Positions 15,468-64,000 of a stretch of 64,000 nt of DNA are shown piece after piece. The position numbers and the translations under genes were made by a program. This stretch comes from Minisyncoccota bacterium. GTDB lineage: Bacteria > Patescibacteriota > Minisyncoccia > Phycocordibacterales > UBA9973. Position 1 is the stretch's first letter; each line of letters opens with the position of its first letter. The stretch lies in NCBI GenBank assembly GCA_018061035.1, contig JAGOUX010000001.1:6817-70816 (forward strand), written 5' to 3'. The notes below the pieces were generated by a model. The model was given only the letters and a program-made list of their open reading frames with translations, ran no database searches and was not told the origin of the DNA.

Positions 15468-16448
15468 CTACCCTAAAGTAGCCAAAAAATCATTAGTTAT
15501 AGTTTCGATCTCAGATGCAGTATTTGCTTCCATCAGCTTAACTCGGAGTTCCTTTGCCCCATCAAAATTATTAACATAAGCTTTGTAGTGCTTCTTCATG
15601 ATTGCAAAGTTCTTGTATCCACCAAGTTTCTCTTCGAATAATTTTGTATGTTCGACCATGACTCGTAATTTCTCCTCTACCGACGGTACTTTTGTAAAGG
15701 ACTGTCCTTTACAAGAAAATAGCCAGGGGTTGCCAAAGATAGCTCTACCGAGCATAACACCATCACAACCAGTATCTGCAACTTTTTTCTCAGCATCAGA
15801 GATATCAAGAGCATCGCCATTGCCGAAAATGAGAGTATCTTTCTTCATTTCATCGCGAATAGCTAAGACATCCTTCATCAAGTCCCAGTGAGCTGGAACT
15901 AGAGACATTTCTTTTCGAGTACGAAGGTGAACTGTGAGCACTGCTATATCTTCTGACAATAGTTCGCGAATCCATGTATCTATCTCATTTTTATTATATC
16001 CAATGCGAGTCTTTACCGATATTGGCAATCCTTGACCTCCTTCGATGGCAGCACGAATAACCTCGCGGGCAAGCTTGGGATCTTTCATCATCGCTGCTCC
16101 TGCGCATTGCTTCTCAATGCTTTTATCGGGACAACCCATATTAATATCAATACCATCAAAACCAAGCTCCTTGCAGAGTTTTGCAGCTTCGCGGATATTC
16201 TCAGGCTTGCCTCCAAATATCTGCGCTACAATCGGGTGCTCATTAGGGCTAAATTTTAAATCAATCAGAAGTTTTTCGCGTGCCTGAAGGTGGGCTAATC
16301 CATCAGCAGAGACAAATTCAGTCCAGAATACATCAGGCTTCCCATATTTGTTTATAATCTCTCTAAACACACAATCCGTAACATCAGCCATAGGCGCTAG
16401 CACCATTATTGGTTTATTAAGTTTTGCCCAAAATCCTAAATTGCTCAT
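15468..16448 (-). CDS. tRNA-dihydrouridine synthase
   Basis: LAPMADVTDCVFRE and DINMGCP motifs of the Dus family; carries an in-frame palindromic insert (see findings). Confidence 0.85.
   Translation of the reverse strand: MSNLGFWAKLNKPIMVLAPMADVTDCVFREIINKYGKPDVFWTEFVSADGLAHLQAREKLLIDLKFSPNEHPIVAQIFGGKPENIREAAKLCKELGFDGIDINMGCPDKSIEKQCAGAAMMKDPKLAREVIRAAIEGGQGLPISVKTRIGYNKNEIDTWIRELLSEDIAVLTVHLRTRKEMSLVPAHWDLMKDVLAIRDEMKKDTLIFGNGDALDISDAEKKVADTGCDGVMLGRAIFGNPWLFSCKGQSFTKVPSVEEKLRVMVEHTKLFEEKLGGYKNFAIMKKHYKAYVNNFDGAKELRVKLMEANTASEIETITNDFLATLG
15691..15714. repeat. 24-bp perfect palindrome TTTGTAAAGGACTGTCCTTTACAA inside the dus CDS
   Basis: Identical to 38471-38494 inside rsmI; in frame, encoding CKGQSFT. 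Confidence 0.85.
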
Positions 16449-19593: not shown

Positions 19594-19713
19594 ATGAATC
19601 CCGTTAGAAGCCGCGGTCGCATTCATTTCAAAATAAATGCTTTTACTAATATCAAAAAAATTATTACTATAAAAAAGCTTAACCGCGGTGTTACAACCGC
19701 GACCTGCTTCTAA
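19594..19713 (+). other. Upstream ORF within MITE copy 1 (39 aa, MNPVRSRGR...TATCF)
   Basis: ATG supplied by the left TSD copy, open through the element, TAA inside the right TIR 5 nt before the topA ATG. Confidence 0.45.
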
Positions 19714-24604: not shown

Positions 24605-24688
24605 GCCCAGGTGGCGGAATTGGTAGACGCGATAGACTCAAAATCTATTGTTGGCAACAACATGAGAGTTCGATTCTCTCCCTGGGCA
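24605..24688 (+). tRNA. tRNA-Leu (anticodon CAA)
   Basis: Hand fold: acceptor GCCCAGG/CCUGGGC, anticodon loop CUCAAAA, long variable arm, T-arm GAGAG-UUCGAUU-CUCUC; 84 nt. Confidence 0.85.
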
Positions 24689-24783
24689 CAGAAACAGTAA
24701 ATTTATTTACTGTTGTGGAGAGATCGAAAGGATTTTCGTTGTTGAATGAAATGAAACCGAAAATCACCCGGCTAAGTAATAGC

Positions 24784-24806
24784 CGATTCTCTCCCTGGGC
24801 ACAGAG
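24784..24806 (+). repeat. Direct repeat of the tRNA-Leu 3' end (identical to 24671-24693)
   Basis: CGATTCTCTCCCTGGGCACAGA is repeated 113 bp downstream. Confidence 0.8.
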
Positions 24807-24819
24807 AAAATTAAACAAT

Positions 24820-27108: not shown

Positions 27109-27189
27109 ATGGATTCCGTTAGAAGCCGCGGTCGCAATTACAATCAAATAACCTTAAGTAGTCTCGGTCTGACCGCGACCTGCTTCTAA
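27109..27189 (+). other. Upstream ORF within MITE copy 2 (26 aa, MDSVRSRGR...TATCF)
   Basis: Starts at the ATG of the left TSD copy and ends at a TAA in the right TIR 4 nt before the murI ATG. Confidence 0.45.
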
Positions 27190-35863: not shown

Positions 35864-37780
35864 ATGAAAATCGTTACCGTTATTCCGCTCGAAAAAACTG
35901 CATTTTCTGGAATTCTGACATATTTTACCTCTAAAGAATTGTCACCTGGAAGCATCGTTTCTATCGCTATTCGCAACAAAAAGATACTCGGCTTAGCTGT
36001 ATCTGTAGAAGAAGCTGAAGATATGAAAAGCGATATAAAGGGTATGGATTTCAATCTTCGAAAGATACTCGACGTCAAGGAGCATTCCCTATTTCGAGGT
36101 GAATTTCTTGATGCTGCTTTTATGACTAGCGAATACTTTGGAAGTACAAAAAATAGCGGACTTTCTCTCCTAATCCCCACTATACTAAAAACAGAGTACG
36201 ACAAAATTTCAAAATTTGTACCTGCCACAACTATTTCAAGTCAGCACTCTGAAATACGTCCAGAGAAATTGCTATTACAGATGCCGTTTGAAGAAAGAAT
36301 TTCAGTTTATAAAACTTTAATTCGTGAAAATTTTGCAGTCAAAAAATCTATCTTCATAGTCCTGCCGACCGAGCAAGATATAAAAGAAATTTCTGGGATA
36401 TTATCTAAGGGTATTGAACAATTCACTTATGCCTTGTACAGCAACCTAAGTGAAAAAAAGACACTACATGCAATACAAGGCATTATTACCAACGCTCATC
36501 CGATATTGATTTTGGGCACTGCACCATTTTTGTCTGTGCCACGTTATGATATCGGTACAATAATCCTCGAACACGAGAGCTCAAATGCGTACCGAAACAT
36601 TGGTCGCCCACACATGGATCAAAGAGTCTTCGCCGAAATATTTGCCTCAAAAATAAATGCTAAAATTATTTTTAGTGATACTATGCTTCGATTTGAAACT
36701 ATTGGCCGAGAAGAAATCGACAACTTTGCGCCGATGCATCCGATGTCTTACCGAATAGACCTGGCAAAAGAAATTCAAATTTTGGACAAAGGAGACAAAT
36801 TTAAGGTGCTCTCAGACGAGGTGATAAGAGAAATCACGGCTACATTAGAAAAAGGCGAGAATGCTTTTGTATTCGCCCTTCGAAAGGGCCTAGCGACTAT
36901 GACTGCATGTCGAGATTGTAGCCATGTAGTAGATTGCGAAAATTGTGGCGGGCCAGTGGTATTGTATTTATCTCGTGATGGCAAAAAACGAATGTTCATC
37001 TGTAATAGATGTAAAAATCAAATGAAAGATGATACCTATTGCAAAAGTTGTGGCTCATGGAATCTCATGCCACTAGGTATAGGCACCGACACAGTAGAAC
37101 TCGCTTTAAGAGAAATATTTCCTAAGATTAAATTATTTAAAATAGACAAAGAGGCAGTAAAAAGTTCCAAGGGTGCCGAAAAAATCGTTGAAGAATTTGA
37201 ATCAGAAAAAGGAGCTATTTTGATAGGAACAGAGATGGCCCTATATTATATTCACAAACAAATTCCCCTTTCGATAATATCTTCCTTCGAAACTCTATGG
37301 GGCATTCCGAATTTCAAAATGAGTGAAAAGGTGATCCAGCTTATATTGGCCCTCCATTCAAAATCTTCAAAAAAGTTGATTGTGCAAACCAAAAACCCAA
37401 CCGACCCGGTGATACAGGCAGTGCAATCTGGAAATCTAGTTTCTTTTGTGCGTAGTGAACTAGAAGACAGAAAAAACTTGGACTATCCTCCCTATAAGCG
37501 TTTCGTTAAAATTACCCACACTGGAGAAAAATCTGATTCTGTAAATGCCAAAGAAGCATTGTTAGAAGTATTCTCGCCATACCAGCCGGAAATTTTTGGA
37601 GGATTTATTGGTTCAAGTAAAAATAAATATGTCACCAATATGTTGATCAAAATCGAACCATCAAAATGGTCCCTACCCGAATTATCTACTGGTGGAACAT
37701 TGGACAAAAATCTCCTTTTGAAATTATTATCACTGCCTTCTGTTTTTGATATATATATCGACCCTGAAGATCTGCTGTAA
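35864..37780 (+). CDS. PriA-like primosomal protein with degenerate helicase motifs
   Basis: PriA-like N-terminal 3' DNA-binding domain and Cys-rich zinc region (CRDCSHVVDCENCGG...CNRCKNQ). Walker A position reads MPFEERIS, the DEEH box reads LEHE, and motif VI is absent. Confidence 0.6.
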   Translation: MKIVTVIPLEKTAFSGILTYFTSKELSPGSIVSIAIRNKKILGLAVSVEEAEDMKSDIKGMDFNLRKILDVKEHSLFRGEFLDAAFMTSEYFGSTKNSGLSLLIPTILKTEYDKISKFVPATTISSQHSEIRPEKLLLQMPFEERISVYKTLIRENFAVKKSIFIVLPTEQDIKEISGILSKGIEQFTYALYSNLSEKKTLHAIQGIITNAHPILILGTAPFLSVPRYDIGTIILEHESSNAYRNIGRPHMDQRVFAEIFASKINAKIIFSDTMLRFETIGREEIDNFAPMHPMSYRIDLAKEIQILDKGDKFKVLSDEVIREITATLEKGENAFVFALRKGLATMTACRDCSHVVDCENCGGPVVLYLSRDGKKRMFICNRCKNQMKDDTYCKSCGSWNLMPLGIGTDTVELALREIFPKIKLFKIDKEAVKSSKGAEKIVEEFESEKGAILIGTEMALYYIHKQIPLSIISSFETLWGIPNFKMSEKVIQLILALHSKSSKKLIVQTKNPTDPVIQAVQSGNLVSFVRSELEDRKNLDYPPYKRFVKITHTGEKSDSVNAKEALLEVFSPYQPEIFGGFIGSSKNKYVTNMLIKIEPSKWSLPELSTGGTLDKNLLLKLLSLPSVFDIYIDPEDLL

Positions 37781-37827
37781 TTGACTTAGCTCATATTTGA
37801 TGTAAAGTTCAGTCAGACATTATCCAT

Positions 37828-38088
37828 ATGGGGCACAGCGTCCCAAAAGGAGTACACGTGTGGCATGGACGGAATTACGTTCCCAGTTACCGCTTCATCA
37901 TGCGGTCACCTCGTCCAGGCGAAATGATCCTTGATGAAGTGACCACCTGCGCATCTCTCTTGGAGGCATGTAGATGGGCAGAAATGAATTTCCCGCAAGG
38001 GGGTACGCTGTGGCATGGGGATACAGCAGTTCTTTGTGTTCCTCAGATGAAGTTCGAAGCAGTAAATACGCAAGGGGCGGCGTCGTGA
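37828..38088 (+). CDS. Hypothetical protein in GC-rich island A
   Basis: 86-aa ORF with GC-rich codons in an otherwise AT-rich genome, followed by the GC hairpin GGGGCGGCGTCGTGAGAACGACCCGCCCC. Confidence 0.35.
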   Translation: MGHSVPKGVHVWHGRNYVPSYRFIMRSPRPGEMILDEVTTCASLLEACRWAEMNFPQGGTLWHGDTAVLCVPQMKFEAVNTQGAAS

Positions 38089-38112
38089 GAACGACCCGCC
38101 CCTAAAATATGC

Positions 38113-38802
38113 CTAAGACACAATTACAGTAAATTCCCCTCTTTGCTTTTCAGTATTTTTTACAAAATATTCGAGAACTTCGGCAGGAGTGCCAGTTTTA
38201 AATTCCTCATATATTTTTGTAAGTTCACGGGCAACACACACCTTCTTCTCTGGGCAAAATTTTATTAACGATTCCAAAGTTTTTAAAATTCTGTGGGGAG
38301 ATTCATAAAACACCATTGTCCGCTCTGATGATGCTATTTCTTTAAATAATGTTTCTCTACCCTTTTTGTGCGGTAAAAATCCAAGAAAAGTAAATTCATG
38401 AGTCGGAAGTCCTGAAGCCGAAAGCGCGGTGATCACAGCAGAAGCTCCAGGTATAGGCACCACCTCCACATTTGTAAAGGACTGTCCTTTACAAAATTTT
38501 TCTTTTATTTGTGAGACAAGCATGGCCCCTGGGTCAGATATGCCTGGCGTGCCTGCGTCTGAAACCAATGCCAAATCTTTACCTTCCTCAAGCATTTCAA
38601 AAATTTTATCTGTCTTGGACAACTTACTCTGCGCGTGGTAGCTCATAGTAGGCTTGCTGATAGCGTATTTATTTAAAAGATTTTTAGTTGTACGGGTGTC
38701 TTCGCAGAGTATTAGATCCACACTTTTAAGCGTTTCAATTGCCCGAAGAGTGATATCTCCCATATTGCCTATTGGTGTCGCTATTACATAAAATTTAGAC
38801 AT
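38113..38802 (-). CDS. rsmI: 16S rRNA 2'-O-methyltransferase RsmI-like (tetrapyrrole-methylase fold)
   Basis: N-terminus LYVIATPIGNMGDITLRAIETL; carries the same in-frame palindromic insert as dus. Confidence 0.8.
   Translation of the reverse strand: MSKFYVIATPIGNMGDITLRAIETLKSVDLILCEDTRTTKNLLNKYAISKPTMSYHAQSKLSKTDKIFEMLEEGKDLALVSDAGTPGISDPGAMLVSQIKEKFCKGQSFTNVEVVPIPGASAVITALSASGLPTHEFTFLGFLPHKKGRETLFKEIASSERTMVFYESPHRILKTLESLIKFCPEKKVCVARELTKIYEEFKTGTPAEVLEYFVKNTEKQRGEFTVIVS
38471..38494. repeat. Same 24-bp palindrome inside the rsmI CDS
   Basis: Identical sequence; encodes CKGQSFTN on the minus strand. Confidence 0.85.
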
Positions 38803-38907
38803 AGAAATAATATAGCATATAAATTATTAAAGGGGCCGCAACATACAGTCGCGACCCCTTCGAGATGATCCTCGAGTTTATTTTGTTTGCCCTCGTGGCA
38901 ATAGTGT

Positions 38908-39420
38908 TCAGCGCGGCCTGGAGAGCCAGAGATGAGGCACCAGCTCTTGGAGAGCCTCAGCTTGGGCCTCAGTGAGACCTACAGCCAGCACGGTGCCGAG
39001 CGCCGTCGTCATCAGTTTGGTCTCAGCGAAGGGGTCGCCATCCTGCATCAACCGCCTCCGGTTGAAGGCCGCCACGATGCGTGACGACTCCTCGTTATTC
39101 AGGCAAGGCGTCGTAGAGCTCATGGTGCAGGCCCCGACCAACAACGTCTCCTTTTTATCCGCAAACATCGCGTGGATGAACCAGGCATCCCCACCAGCAT
39201 TTATCTTTGTGACGTCTGTGCCGTACCTGGCCTTCGTCGGCTCGGGCAACAGCAATAGCGCAACGCAAAATGCTGCGCCAACACCACCGACAATCAATGT
39301 AGTGACCGCCAGCCACCACGCGAGGATCTGAGACTGTCCACCCGCCAGCCACTTGATTGAATCCGCCACACAAAAAGTGCAAACAAGCACCACCAACACT
39401 AACACGATCTTTCTGAACAT
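38908..39420 (-). CDS. Hypothetical two-TM membrane protein (GC-rich island B)
   Basis: GC-rich codon usage; likely start at MFRKIVLVLVV; GC hairpin terminator downstream at ~38831-38858. Confidence 0.4.
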   Translation of the reverse strand: MFRKIVLVLVVLVCTFCVADSIKWLAGGQSQILAWWLAVTTLIVGGVGAAFCVALLLLPEPTKARYGTDVTKINAGGDAWFIHAMFADKKETLLVGACTMSSTTPCLNNEESSRIVAAFNRRRLMQDGDPFAETKLMTTALGTVLAVGLTEAQAEALQELVPHLWLSRPR

Positions 39421-39598
39421 TTTTCCCCCTTGAGTTAATATACGATCCAAGATAAAGCACTAAAAATTCAAATATATTAAATTCTTAATGCTTTATCCAA
39501 GATTTTTTATTTTAAATGAGCAAAACATTATACTCTTGTAGTATAGCATAAATTATAGCAAAAGTCAATATTATTGTATTTAAAATAAAACTAATACA

Positions 39599-39629
39599 GG
39601 TCGGAGGAGAATGGTTTTCTCCGCCGACC
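39599..39629 (-). terminator. Rho-independent terminator for the island-B gene 39640..40272
   Basis: 13-bp stem GGTCGGAGGAGAA/TTCTCCGCCGACC, then a U-rich tract on the minus strand. Confidence 0.6.
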
Positions 39630-39639
39630 TGCTGTGTGA

Positions 39640-40272
39640 TTACAAGTGATTTTCAATCCGCAGGGCGGATTTGAAGAACCGGATCTTGTCATGCCGGTTC
39701 TTGGAATTGCAGCCCGCCTGGTACGCCAGGATGGCGTCCTTCTTGCGGACTACTCGCGCATCGGCCTCCAAGTTGGCCACCCGTCGATCTCCCTGCACCG
39801 GCATCGACGAAGCAGGTTCCGGATCAACACCCTTCCGCTGGAGTGACTCGAGAAGGCCGCGGTGCGACTTCTTGTGCTTCTCGGCCGAGCCGTTGTCCTC
39901 GAAGGCGACGAACCACTTCTTGAGTTCGTACAGGTTCCGGCACGCATCGAACCCAAGACGGAGTGCTCGACGTTCGTCCTCCGGCAGGTCGCGCTTGGCC
40001 AAGATCCGCTCGAACCTTGTACGAAACTTTTCCCGTCGTTCGAACGCCACGCGATTCTTCTTAAGGCCCGCGAGACAGGTGTTCACGAAATCGATGGCCT
40101 CCGTGATCACTTCGGGTTTTTTGTCCCCGAGAACCTCGGCGTACTCTGAATAATCCAGAGCCTGCCTAGCCGCTGAAGCCAACGCCGTTTTCAGGATGTT
40201 CATCCTGAGATTGGCGTCGACTTCCCCCCGCAGCCTGTCTGCCTGTGTCAAAAGCTCACTACGTTTCGACAT
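39640..40272 (-). CDS. Hypothetical charged/helical protein (GC-rich island B)
   Basis: 210-aa ORF with strongly GC-biased third codon positions; the antisense ORFs are Arg/Ser-rich artefacts. Confidence 0.5.
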   Translation of the reverse strand: MSKRSELLTQADRLRGEVDANLRMNILKTALASAARQALDYSEYAEVLGDKKPEVITEAIDFVNTCLAGLKKNRVAFERREKFRTRFERILAKRDLPEDERRALRLGFDACRNLYELKKWFVAFEDNGSAEKHKKSHRGLLESLQRKGVDPEPASSMPVQGDRRVANLEADARVVRKKDAILAYQAGCNSKNRHDKIRFFKSALRIENHL

Positions 40273-40315
40273 CTACCCCCCACTGAAAACTGTCAAACAA
40301 CAAACAACAAACAAC

Positions 40316-40346
40316 AAAAAACTAGTATTATTTATACTAGTTTTTT
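40316..40346 (-). terminator. Palindromic terminator after atpC (end of the atp operon)
   Basis: AAAAAACTAGTAT-TATTT-ATACTAGTTTTTT, perfect 13-bp arms flanked by A/T runs (bidirectional), next to an (AACAA)n simple repeat. Confidence 0.65.
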
Positions 40347-40361
40347 GGAAAAAGTCAATCT

Positions 40362-50348: not shown

Positions 50349-50600
50349 AATAACACAACGAACATAAGTTCGCATTATCTAAAGTCGTTAGCACCCCAAA
50401 AAAGCGGTACTAACGGCTTTTTTGATTTCTGTTATTTATTTCACAAACTGCAAACTCCTCACTCAAAAAACTTCCAACAACAAACTAACTATTAAAATAT
50501 ATTAAATCCAGATGGCATGCAAAAGGCCCCGTCGACATCTGTCGACGGGGCCGATTTTCTTCGTGCTCAAGCCTACCATTGGTTCTGAATGTGACCAATA

Positions 50601-63654: not shown

Positions 63655-64000
63655 ACAAGAAGATAGGGTGGCGACCACACGGTCGCCACCCTCGCGAGAA
63701 AATATATCAAGCACCGAAGAGCATATGCCCGATCGGTGCTTTCTTCGTTTTACCCTTAATGTGCTAAAATATATGGACTTGTCCCGTTATAAATTTAGCT
63801 CGCGGGATTTTGTAAATAAAGATTATTAATTAAAATTTATAATGGGATGCAAATTATTTGGATATTATTGGGAGTTATCGCAGGAGGCCTAGTAGCATAT
63901 GCTATCCTAGGAAAAAAGAGAGATGATTCAAATGGAGCCAAGGATCAATCCTTACTTCTTCTTCAGCAACAAATGGCCGAGCTCGCGAGAGCCCTTGATT

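Follow-up and report, generated by a model that had tools for sequence, protein, structure and literature searches.

The question raised by this locus is how the same palindromic sequence came to lie, in frame, within two unrelated housekeeping genes of a bacterium from the Candidate Phyla Radiation (CPR). The DNA analysed is a stretch of 64,000 nucleotides from a Minisyncoccota bacterium (contig JAGOUX010000001.1, positions 6,817 to 70,816), referred to here as the window, in which the 24-mer TTTGTAAAGGACTGTCCTTTACAA is found at positions 15691-15714, inside the gene of a tRNA-dihydrouridine synthase (Dus), and again at 38471-38494, inside the gene of the 16S rRNA C1402 2'-O-methyltransferase RsmI. 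The palindrome is probably a hairpin of the type known as repetitive extragenic palindromes (REPs), belonging to a clade of REP-associated tyrosine transposases (RAYTs) widespread in Patescibacteria (Paceibacteria/Nomurabacteria), which would have been kept where it was in frame, free of stop codons and tolerated by a loop.

Both copies match the 24-mer with 0 mismatches and are in frame on the minus strand, as the original prediction had stated, and this common reading frame gives the peptide CKGQSFT. None of 100 dinucleotide-preserving shuffles contained a match (0/100), and none is expected by chance. What had been described as a perfect 24-bp palindrome is actually a 23-bp dyad, TTGTAAAGGAC-T-GTCCTTTACAA, with 11-nt arms around a single central base (T on the plus strand). 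The first copy of this REP-type palindrome, in dus, is an exact match at 15692..15714, and the second, in rsmI, extends over 38471..38495, in such a way that the dyad at 38472-38494 has its arms lengthened by a flanking T and A to 12 nt, 100% complementary and separated by 1 nt; neither is assigned a strand. Comparison of 15688-15714 with 38468-38494 shows an identity of 27 nt broken by one mismatch. Elsewhere the window contains neither complete nor degenerate copies, nor half-sites, even in a search with the 13-nt core AAGGACNGTCCTT and 2 mismatches allowed. Folded as single-stranded DNA (ssDNA), the element gives a hairpin of 10 bp closed by a 3-nt loop (-7.8 kcal/mol, z -5.8), and the mRNA context of the second copy folds at z -3.2. 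Each strand has two stop-free frames, reading CKG(Q/L)SFT and VKD(S/C)PLQ, and a third that contains TAA. An Rfam scan of the window at gathering thresholds returned four tRNAs only, with no known RNA family at the palindrome.

Both host genes lie on the minus strand. The Dus gene (15468..16448) encodes a protein of 326 aa matching Pfam PF01207 (E 1e-63), the closest relatives of which come from metagenome bins of Paceibacterota/Nomurabacteria, within the CPR. The RsmI gene (38113..38802) encodes 229 aa, with a match to Pfam TP_methylase PF00590 (E 1e-28) and, by phmmer, to E. coli RsmI 5hw4 (E 3e-51). The inserted codons, TGT AAA GGA CAG TCC TTT ACA, are at 15693..15713 in the first gene, where they encode Dus residues 246-252, and the same seven codons at 38473..38493 encode residues 104-110 of RsmI, in both cases on the minus strand.

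The palindrome is an insertion in both genes. In an alignment of the Dus protein of the window with its 120 best matches (71-98% identity), the peptide CKGQSFT was missing in 119 of the 120 closest orthologues, the sole carrier being P0001, a protein 98% identical from another sample. The linker that runs from NPWLF to the next helix has 9 residues in 80 of the 121 sequences (for example S-G-KVPTLEE) and 15 in the window (S-CKGQSFT-KVPSVEE), and in the orthologues without the insert a single residue, mostly G, stands in place of the heptapeptide. A similar pattern was found for RsmI, where again 119 of the 120 closest orthologues lack CKGQSFT (sole carrier P0121, 92%), and the shortest ones read ..IKEK-M-P-EVQV.. 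at the place where the window reads ..IKEK-F-CKGQSFT-NVEV... At the DNA level, the empty Dus site is seen in stretch L016 as TTC TCC GGC AAA GTC, the filled site of the window being TTT TCT, the seven codons and AAA GTA; the empty RsmI site was found in L015. In both genes, seven codons occupy the place of one basal codon, with a net gain of 18 nt, or 6 residues.

These data agree with the original prediction in its central claim, an in-frame palindromic insertion into two unrelated genes resembling the Rickettsia palindromic elements (RPEs), given that 1 of 120 orthologues of each protein has the peptide, and the extra loop for which it proposed orthologue alignments is present in RsmI as well as in the Dus linker. 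Its estimate of about 8 codons was right as to the insertion and wrong as to its size. The statement that other bacteria have no equivalent residues holds for RsmI, since E. coli 5hw4 shows an 8-residue gap opposite the insert, but not for distant Dus proteins: the linker of Thermotoga Dus 1vhn is longer than that of the window protein, so that, for Dus, one can speak of extra residues only within the Paceibacteria orthologue group.

The positions of the inserts were located on AlphaFold2 models built with the orthologue alignments, mapping onto structures having been proposed together with the insertion. In the RsmI model (mean predicted local distance difference test score, pLDDT, of 80.8), the best Foldseek match of which is 5hw4, the insert forms a coil (105-111) between helix 90-104 and strand 112-117, with pLDDT values <50 at residues 107-109. 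The Dus model (mean pLDDT 86.9; best solved matches 1vhn and 3b0u, template modelling (TM) scores 0.75-0.78) has a coil at 245-256, preceded by the last element of the TIM barrel, a short helix (241-244, within NPWLF), and followed by the first helix (257-275) of the C-terminal helical domain; the mean pLDDT is 60 for residues 241-250. Both inserts are thus predicted to lie in low-confidence coil at tolerated surface positions, and the Dus interdomain linker and the RsmI helix-strand loop are, as modelled, positions tolerant of length change.

Signs of movement were found in a syntenic relative, contig Ga0502775_0000424, which has blocks of 65-81% nucleotide identity to the window. Its rsmI gene, 81% identical overall, carries the palindrome at the identical position (cTGTAAAGGACAGTCCTTTACAg, with the 21-nt core unchanged), and its dus site is empty, from which it follows that dus gained its copy after the split of the two lineages. 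The rsmI copy is either older than the split or was gained twice. The original prediction had taken the same peptide without the palindromic DNA in relatives as a mark of ancestral sequence; in the rsmI gene of this relative it is the palindromic DNA itself that has been kept. All seven codons of the rsmI copy (7/7) are identical between the window and the relative, compared with 57% of the conserved-residue codons gene-wide (p ~0.02). Since identical runs of 29-35 nt occur elsewhere in rsmI, this signal is weak and selection at the DNA level is not claimed.

The DNA flanking rsmI (window ~35864-38088 and 38908-40350) could not be matched at nucleotide level to the equivalent part of the syntenic relative, so the gene stands in a locally variable stretch. 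The flanks contain a 638-aa PriA-like open reading frame (ORF), an 86-aa ORF and a 180-aa membrane-like ORF, and the 4-kb block around rsmI (36001-40000) has a GC content of 0.43, above most of the window.

Related forms of the palindrome were found in the same loop of other RsmI proteins. In L019, the loop DNA is TGTCAAGGACGGTCCTTGACA, in the same frame (CQGRSLT), and a change in the stem is compensated on both arms. In L017, the loop contains two copies of the core, inverted and 12 nt apart, an organization resembling the REP doublets forming hairpins (REPINs), with a 13-bp inter-REP stem of -24 kcal/mol. A doublet was also found in L006, this time intergenic and just downstream of a convergent ORF, and its two copies have the core in common and differ in their outer stems. 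Altogether, core-encoded peptides occupy 9 of the 121 RsmI loops, scattered among nearest neighbours without an insert, a pattern that suggests several independent gains or many losses.

The Dus linker also varies in length. It is expanded to 10-44 residues in 41 of the 121 orthologues, with some recurring types of peptide such as ..KKHENFLQKIFSVRRRH.. and ..NFSGLLHP.., and at the DNA level the orthologue P0072 (L018, 10001-11038) has in it an unrelated in-frame hairpin of ~85 nt, within a 132-nt region that folds at -58 kcal/mol. Several element families appear to have used this linker as an insertion hotspot.

Public collections were scanned for TGTAAAGGACNGTCCTTTACA. Eight stretches of the metagenome collection matched, and three of them (L004, L005 and L008) showed paired copies ~700 bp apart. 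At these loci (L004, L005/L022/L023 and L008), two copies of TTGTAAAGGAC-G-GTCCTTTACA(A/G) at that distance bracket an ORF of 229-236 aa (229 aa in L008, at 1225-1914). The encoded protein matches Pfam Y1_Tnp PF01797 ('transposase IS200-like', 32.9 bits for a cut-off of 23), and its only and best NCBIfam match is REP_Tyr_transpos (NF047646); as this sole match falls below the family cut-off, the protein belongs to a distant clade of RAYTs. The best match in the Protein Data Bank (PDB) was E. coli TnpA-REP 4er8 (E 0.007), aligned across HxH and YIxxNP, and residues H84, H86, Y140 and Y144 were invariant in an alignment of 53 sequences. By these sequence matches, the protein has the Y1_Tnp fold, the HUH motif and the catalytic tyrosine of a RAYT. 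The family comprises 7042 protein clusters at E <= 1e-10, those with names coming from Paceibacterota, Nomurabacteria, Moranbacteria and Minisyncoccia, and one cluster has the source annotation 'REP element-mobilizing transposase RayT'.

The surroundings of the RAYT-like gene are similar in the three loci, whose proteins have 69-80% amino acid identity. In all of them a PaaX_M-like gene follows directly on the 3' side (L008 1924-2481; L022 3257-3850; L004 1019-1366), overlapping the end of the RAYT-like gene in L022 and starting 15 nt after the 3' palindrome in L008, and dnaK and grpE are nearby in L008 and L022. The PaaX_M-like product, a putative DNA-binding protein, may be a functional partner or regulator of the RAYT-like gene. 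The similar neighbourhood in three diverged loci suggests that this gene is inherited vertically as a single copy, as for RAYTs (PMC5581495).

Each locus contains three copies of the core. At the 5' copy, a -35-like TTGTAA is followed after 17 nt by TATAAT or TACAAT. The internal core, AAGGACGGTCCTT, is in frame within the RAYT-like gene (L008 1387-1408; L004 ~456-476; L022 ~2722-2742) and coincides with the conserved family motif F-R-(K/Q)-GRSFTE; the conservation of its synonymous sites was not significant (p ~0.06). The 3' copy encodes the C-terminal tail of the protein, ..VKDGPLQ.., and similar tails (VKDGPSQ, VKVGASQ, VKVRPSQ and others) were present in 42 of 121 sequences. The palindrome and the RAYT-like gene together are a REP/RAYT arrangement, or REPtron.

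The remaining matches require more caution. The scan of the viral collection gave no match to the palindrome, and the genome collection gave one orthologous locus only, from gut Clostridia (L001-L003; also L007 and L010). In these gut Oscillospiraceae/Ruminococcaceae (for example L002 3822-3842), the 21-mer lies inside a XerC/D-like tyrosine recombinase ORF that reads it as LVKDSPLQ at an ordinary conserved position (..LVKDSPLQNLDTPK..). The match was rejected as a relative of the element, being close to the chance expectation for 20 specified bases in 596 Gb, and is probably a chance or independent occurrence. Also set aside was L011, where the 21-mer is in the gene of a hypothetical protein and may be due to chance, the contig having no markers that could be recognised as CPR. 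Palindrome DNA is read in the alternative frame, VKDSPLQ, in other proteins. In L009, an RNA methyltransferase, the 21-mer is in the other frame, and the case was discarded as a demonstrated insertion because PDB 2igt is only 1 residue shorter at this place.

If the palindrome is a REP-type hairpin, a single-copy chromosomal transposase would recognise it on ssDNA, cut it and rejoin it elsewhere. TnpA-REP and the IS200/IS605 (IS608) enzymes act on ssDNA hairpins, and this is the basis of the proposed chemistry. Where hardly any of the genome is intergenic, many landings would occur inside genes, and the survivors would be those copies that add a multiple of three bases, in either stop-free frame (CKGQSFT or VKDSPLQ), within a tolerant surface loop or linker. 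The outcome would be a passive enlargement by 6 residues of the Dus interdomain linker and the RsmI helix-strand loop, and the decorated enzymes are expected to be active. The two window copies would have been moved by a RAYT-like transposase, and the genome to which the window belongs would accordingly be expected to encode one. A bolder extension, which we put forward tentatively and hold to be possible rather than probable, is that a divergent RAYT clade of Paceibacteria and other CPR bacteria, with its AAGGACNGTCCTT-core hairpins, resides for the most part in coding sequence and not between genes, and repeatedly enters the same permissive loops of core enzymes. It draws on the RsmI loops with core-encoded peptides (at least 9 of 121), on the Dus linkers, expanded in 41 of 121 orthologues, and on the transposase gene itself, which has the core at its R-K-GRSFTE motif, in its C-terminal tail and in a putative -35 box. 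In such a case, hairpin elements would be one of the main sources of variable loop length in CPR proteomes, with the transposase physically interlocked with its own hairpin.

Several observations weigh against assigning the window copies to a REP/RAYT system. The copy number is low, with 2 copies in the 64-kb window and 1 in ~41 kb of the relative, and no copies were found outside the RAYT locus in the 12-13 kb of L008 and L022; classical REPs are present in tens to hundreds of copies. The window contains no RAYT homologue, and the exact 21-mer was absent from the Patescibacteria species representatives of the genome collection. The central base is G in the copies flanking the RAYT-like gene versus T/A in those of the window. 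As for the transposase, its REP_Tyr_transpos score of 48-51 bits is below the 80-bit equivalog cut-off, and in a profile search of the PDB 4er8 ranked first with a weak E value of 0.12. At the insertion sites, the boundaries are ambiguous, units of 18, 21 or 24 nt being possible, and the exchange of 1 codon for 7 resembles a replacement. The flanks revealed no clear target motif: the in-gene copies have ..AC(T/A)TT in common on one side at inconsistent offsets, and the Dus flank is ancestral coding sequence (K-V). The L009 stretch, of nearly equal length to 2igt, is not clearly inserted. The tag that defines the GTAG and CGTC superfamilies of REPs (PMC3733652) is also missing here, the sequence being TT-GTAA-AGGAC...GTCCT-TTAC-AA, with GTAA...TTAC inside the stem.

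Part of these points would be expected if the insertions are real and spread by other means, such as ectopic gene conversion, template switching at hairpins or an unrelated transposase, the palindromes at the RAYT-like gene being simply that gene's own ends. The missing transposase in the window, the very low copy number and the substitution of seven codons for one in both genes, which is not a simple addition, are all compatible with this, as is L009, where the palindrome replaces a stretch of equal length in a replacement-like rather than cut-and-paste manner. We nevertheless consider this explanation unlikely, since the RAYT-like gene keeps a similar neighbourhood and is not repeated, so the dispersed copies are not the ends of a moving insertion sequence (IS), and the organisation fits that of described REPtrons (PMC3733652, PMC5581495). 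The dyad symmetry of the sequence had led to another proposal in the original prediction, a double-stranded operator for a dimeric DNA-binding protein, which could be the PaaX_M-like winged helix, the intragenic copies being extra sites. The overlap of the 5' copy with the promoter-like site (TTGTAA, 17 nt, TATAAT/TACAAT) at the RAYT loci would suit such a function, and so would the position of the 3' copy, which in L008 precedes the start codon of the PaaX_M-like gene by 15 nt and in L022 lies within that gene's first codons; promoter-like matches, however, are frequent when these AT-rich regions are shuffled (mean ~5). The paired half-site changes of L019 would likewise suit a dimeric binder, but in L006 the adjacent copies share the core and not the outer stems, so that pairing is kept and half-site sequence is not. 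Given as well that the core forms inverted doublets inside a coding loop (L017), that the window copies are in the middle of ORFs, in frame, in unrelated genes and with no -10-like hexamer after them, and that neither a PaaX_M-like gene nor a nearby regulator was found in the window, the operator is the less likely interpretation and, in our judgement, a very improbable one.

Still less credit can be given to the idea that CKGQSFT is a native or convergent peptide, for instance an RNA-contacting motif, and the symmetry of its DNA incidental. Both hosts are RNA-modifying enzymes, and the RAYT-like proteins themselves have a conserved R-(K/E)-GRSFTE encoded by the same core; against this, the absence of the peptide from 119 of 120 orthologues of each enzyme, the match of the two copies over 27 nt with 1 mismatch, all synonymous positions included, the reading of the same DNA as VKDSPLQ in other proteins, and the location of the insert in low-confidence coil away from conserved motifs make it most improbable. 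An assembly or sequencing artefact has a practically negligible probability, as the same inserts appear in independent samples and assemblers (P0001 from JGI, L012 from JGI 3300051786 and L013 from Logan SRR35802784) and nothing was found in its favour. A REP-type hairpin belonging to a RAYT clade is, therefore, the explanation that we favour.

Other repeats of the window are of a different nature. At 50525-50552 and 63665-63692, two GC-rich hairpins, both perfect and with arms of 13 and 12 nt, lie outside all ORFs of at least 100 aa; they were considered as relatives of the palindrome and rejected, being intergenic, GC-rich and of unrelated sequence, and are probably terminators. A 31-nt direct repeat, 87% identical, is present at 24671-24701 and 24784-24814, its first copy overlapping the 3' end of tRNA-Leu(caa) (24605-24689), in such a way that the 3' end of the tRNA is duplicated 113 bp downstream; it could be the remnant attachment site of an integrated element. 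A 43-nt repeat (19594-19636 and 27109-27151), 79% identical, has the common core CCGTTAGAAGCCGCGGTCGCA.

To our knowledge, REP/RAYT systems have been studied almost only in Proteobacteria, and our literature search gave no paper linking RAYTs or REPINs with the CPR. Work on REP/REPIN-RAYT systems is reportedly due to Nunvar (2010), Bertels and Rainey (2011), Messing (2012) and Ton-Hoang (2012). With the reading favoured here, the reach of REP/RAYT would extend to ultra-small genomes, where a large RAYT-like family is found, and hairpins could persist there, with little intergenic space available, as in-frame decorations of essential enzymes. For annotation and phylogenomics, this would account in concrete terms for part of the variation in loop length that alignments of CPR proteins show. 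The window itself provides two natural insertions with relative dates, one younger than the split between relatives and the other, unless gained twice, older.

We compared the element with known systems. In common with REP/REPIN-RAYT systems (E. coli TnpA-REP, Pseudomonas REPINs; PMC5581495), it is a short hairpin-forming palindrome, within the range of ~20-40 bp; the same palindrome stands on both sides of a chromosomal Y1/HUH gene in a conserved neighbourhood at the related loci, and solo copies and inverted doublets (L017, L006) are dispersed, those of the window being singletons. The differences are the host, a CPR bacterium, the longer (229-236 aa) and very divergent transposase, the copy number, which seems very low, and the presence of the core in frame within the transposase ORF, as internal motif and C-terminal tail. 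In addition, REPs are typically extragenic, just 3' of ORFs, whereas both window copies are intragenic; the L006 doublet is extragenic.

The IS200/IS605 elements (IS608, ISDra2) have a transposase of the same Y1 HUH fold (Pfam Y1_Tnp), and recognition of ssDNA hairpins is, by analogy, the chemistry to be expected here. The palindrome contains TTAC, which we take to be the target tetranucleotide of IS608. Unlike those elements, the RAYT-like gene appears fixed near the same neighbours and unrepeated, and both of its ends are the same near-perfect palindrome instead of distinct left and right subterminal hairpins.

REPs of the GTAG and CGTC types have been described inside genes of several species (Di Nocera et al. 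2013, PMC3733652), where RPE-4 and RPE-6 of R. conorii were identified as intragenic REPs and Opitutus terrae and Thauera are other hosts. There too, single REPs or dimers lie in frame in genes of known proteins, RNA- and DNA-handling enzymes included, encoding ~10-30 extra residues; in-frame repeat insertions are reviewed in PMC3184786. The element described here belongs to another sequence family and phylum, and differs in that one RsmI loop has been hit repeatedly by related variants across the clade.

The RPEs suggested by the original prediction share with it the character of a palindromic selfish element in frame in housekeeping genes of a reduced genome and tolerated in surface segments, so the analogy is valid as regards in-frame insertion in conserved proteins. 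RPE-1 (Ogata et al. 2000, cited through PMC3733652 and PMC3184786) has ~100-150 bp and encodes 30-50 residues, and is not known to be linked to a transposase; the present element, of 23 bp and 7 residues, is set apart by its size and by its host, a Patescibacteria bacterium, and in this case a RAYT-like gene carries the same palindrome. In relatives, this palindrome is found on either side of a Y1 transposase gene, and for that reason we group the element with REP/RAYT systems in preference to RPE-1, with its 100-150 bp. It is a known kind of selfish DNA, in-frame selfish palindromes having been known since the Rickettsia RPEs.

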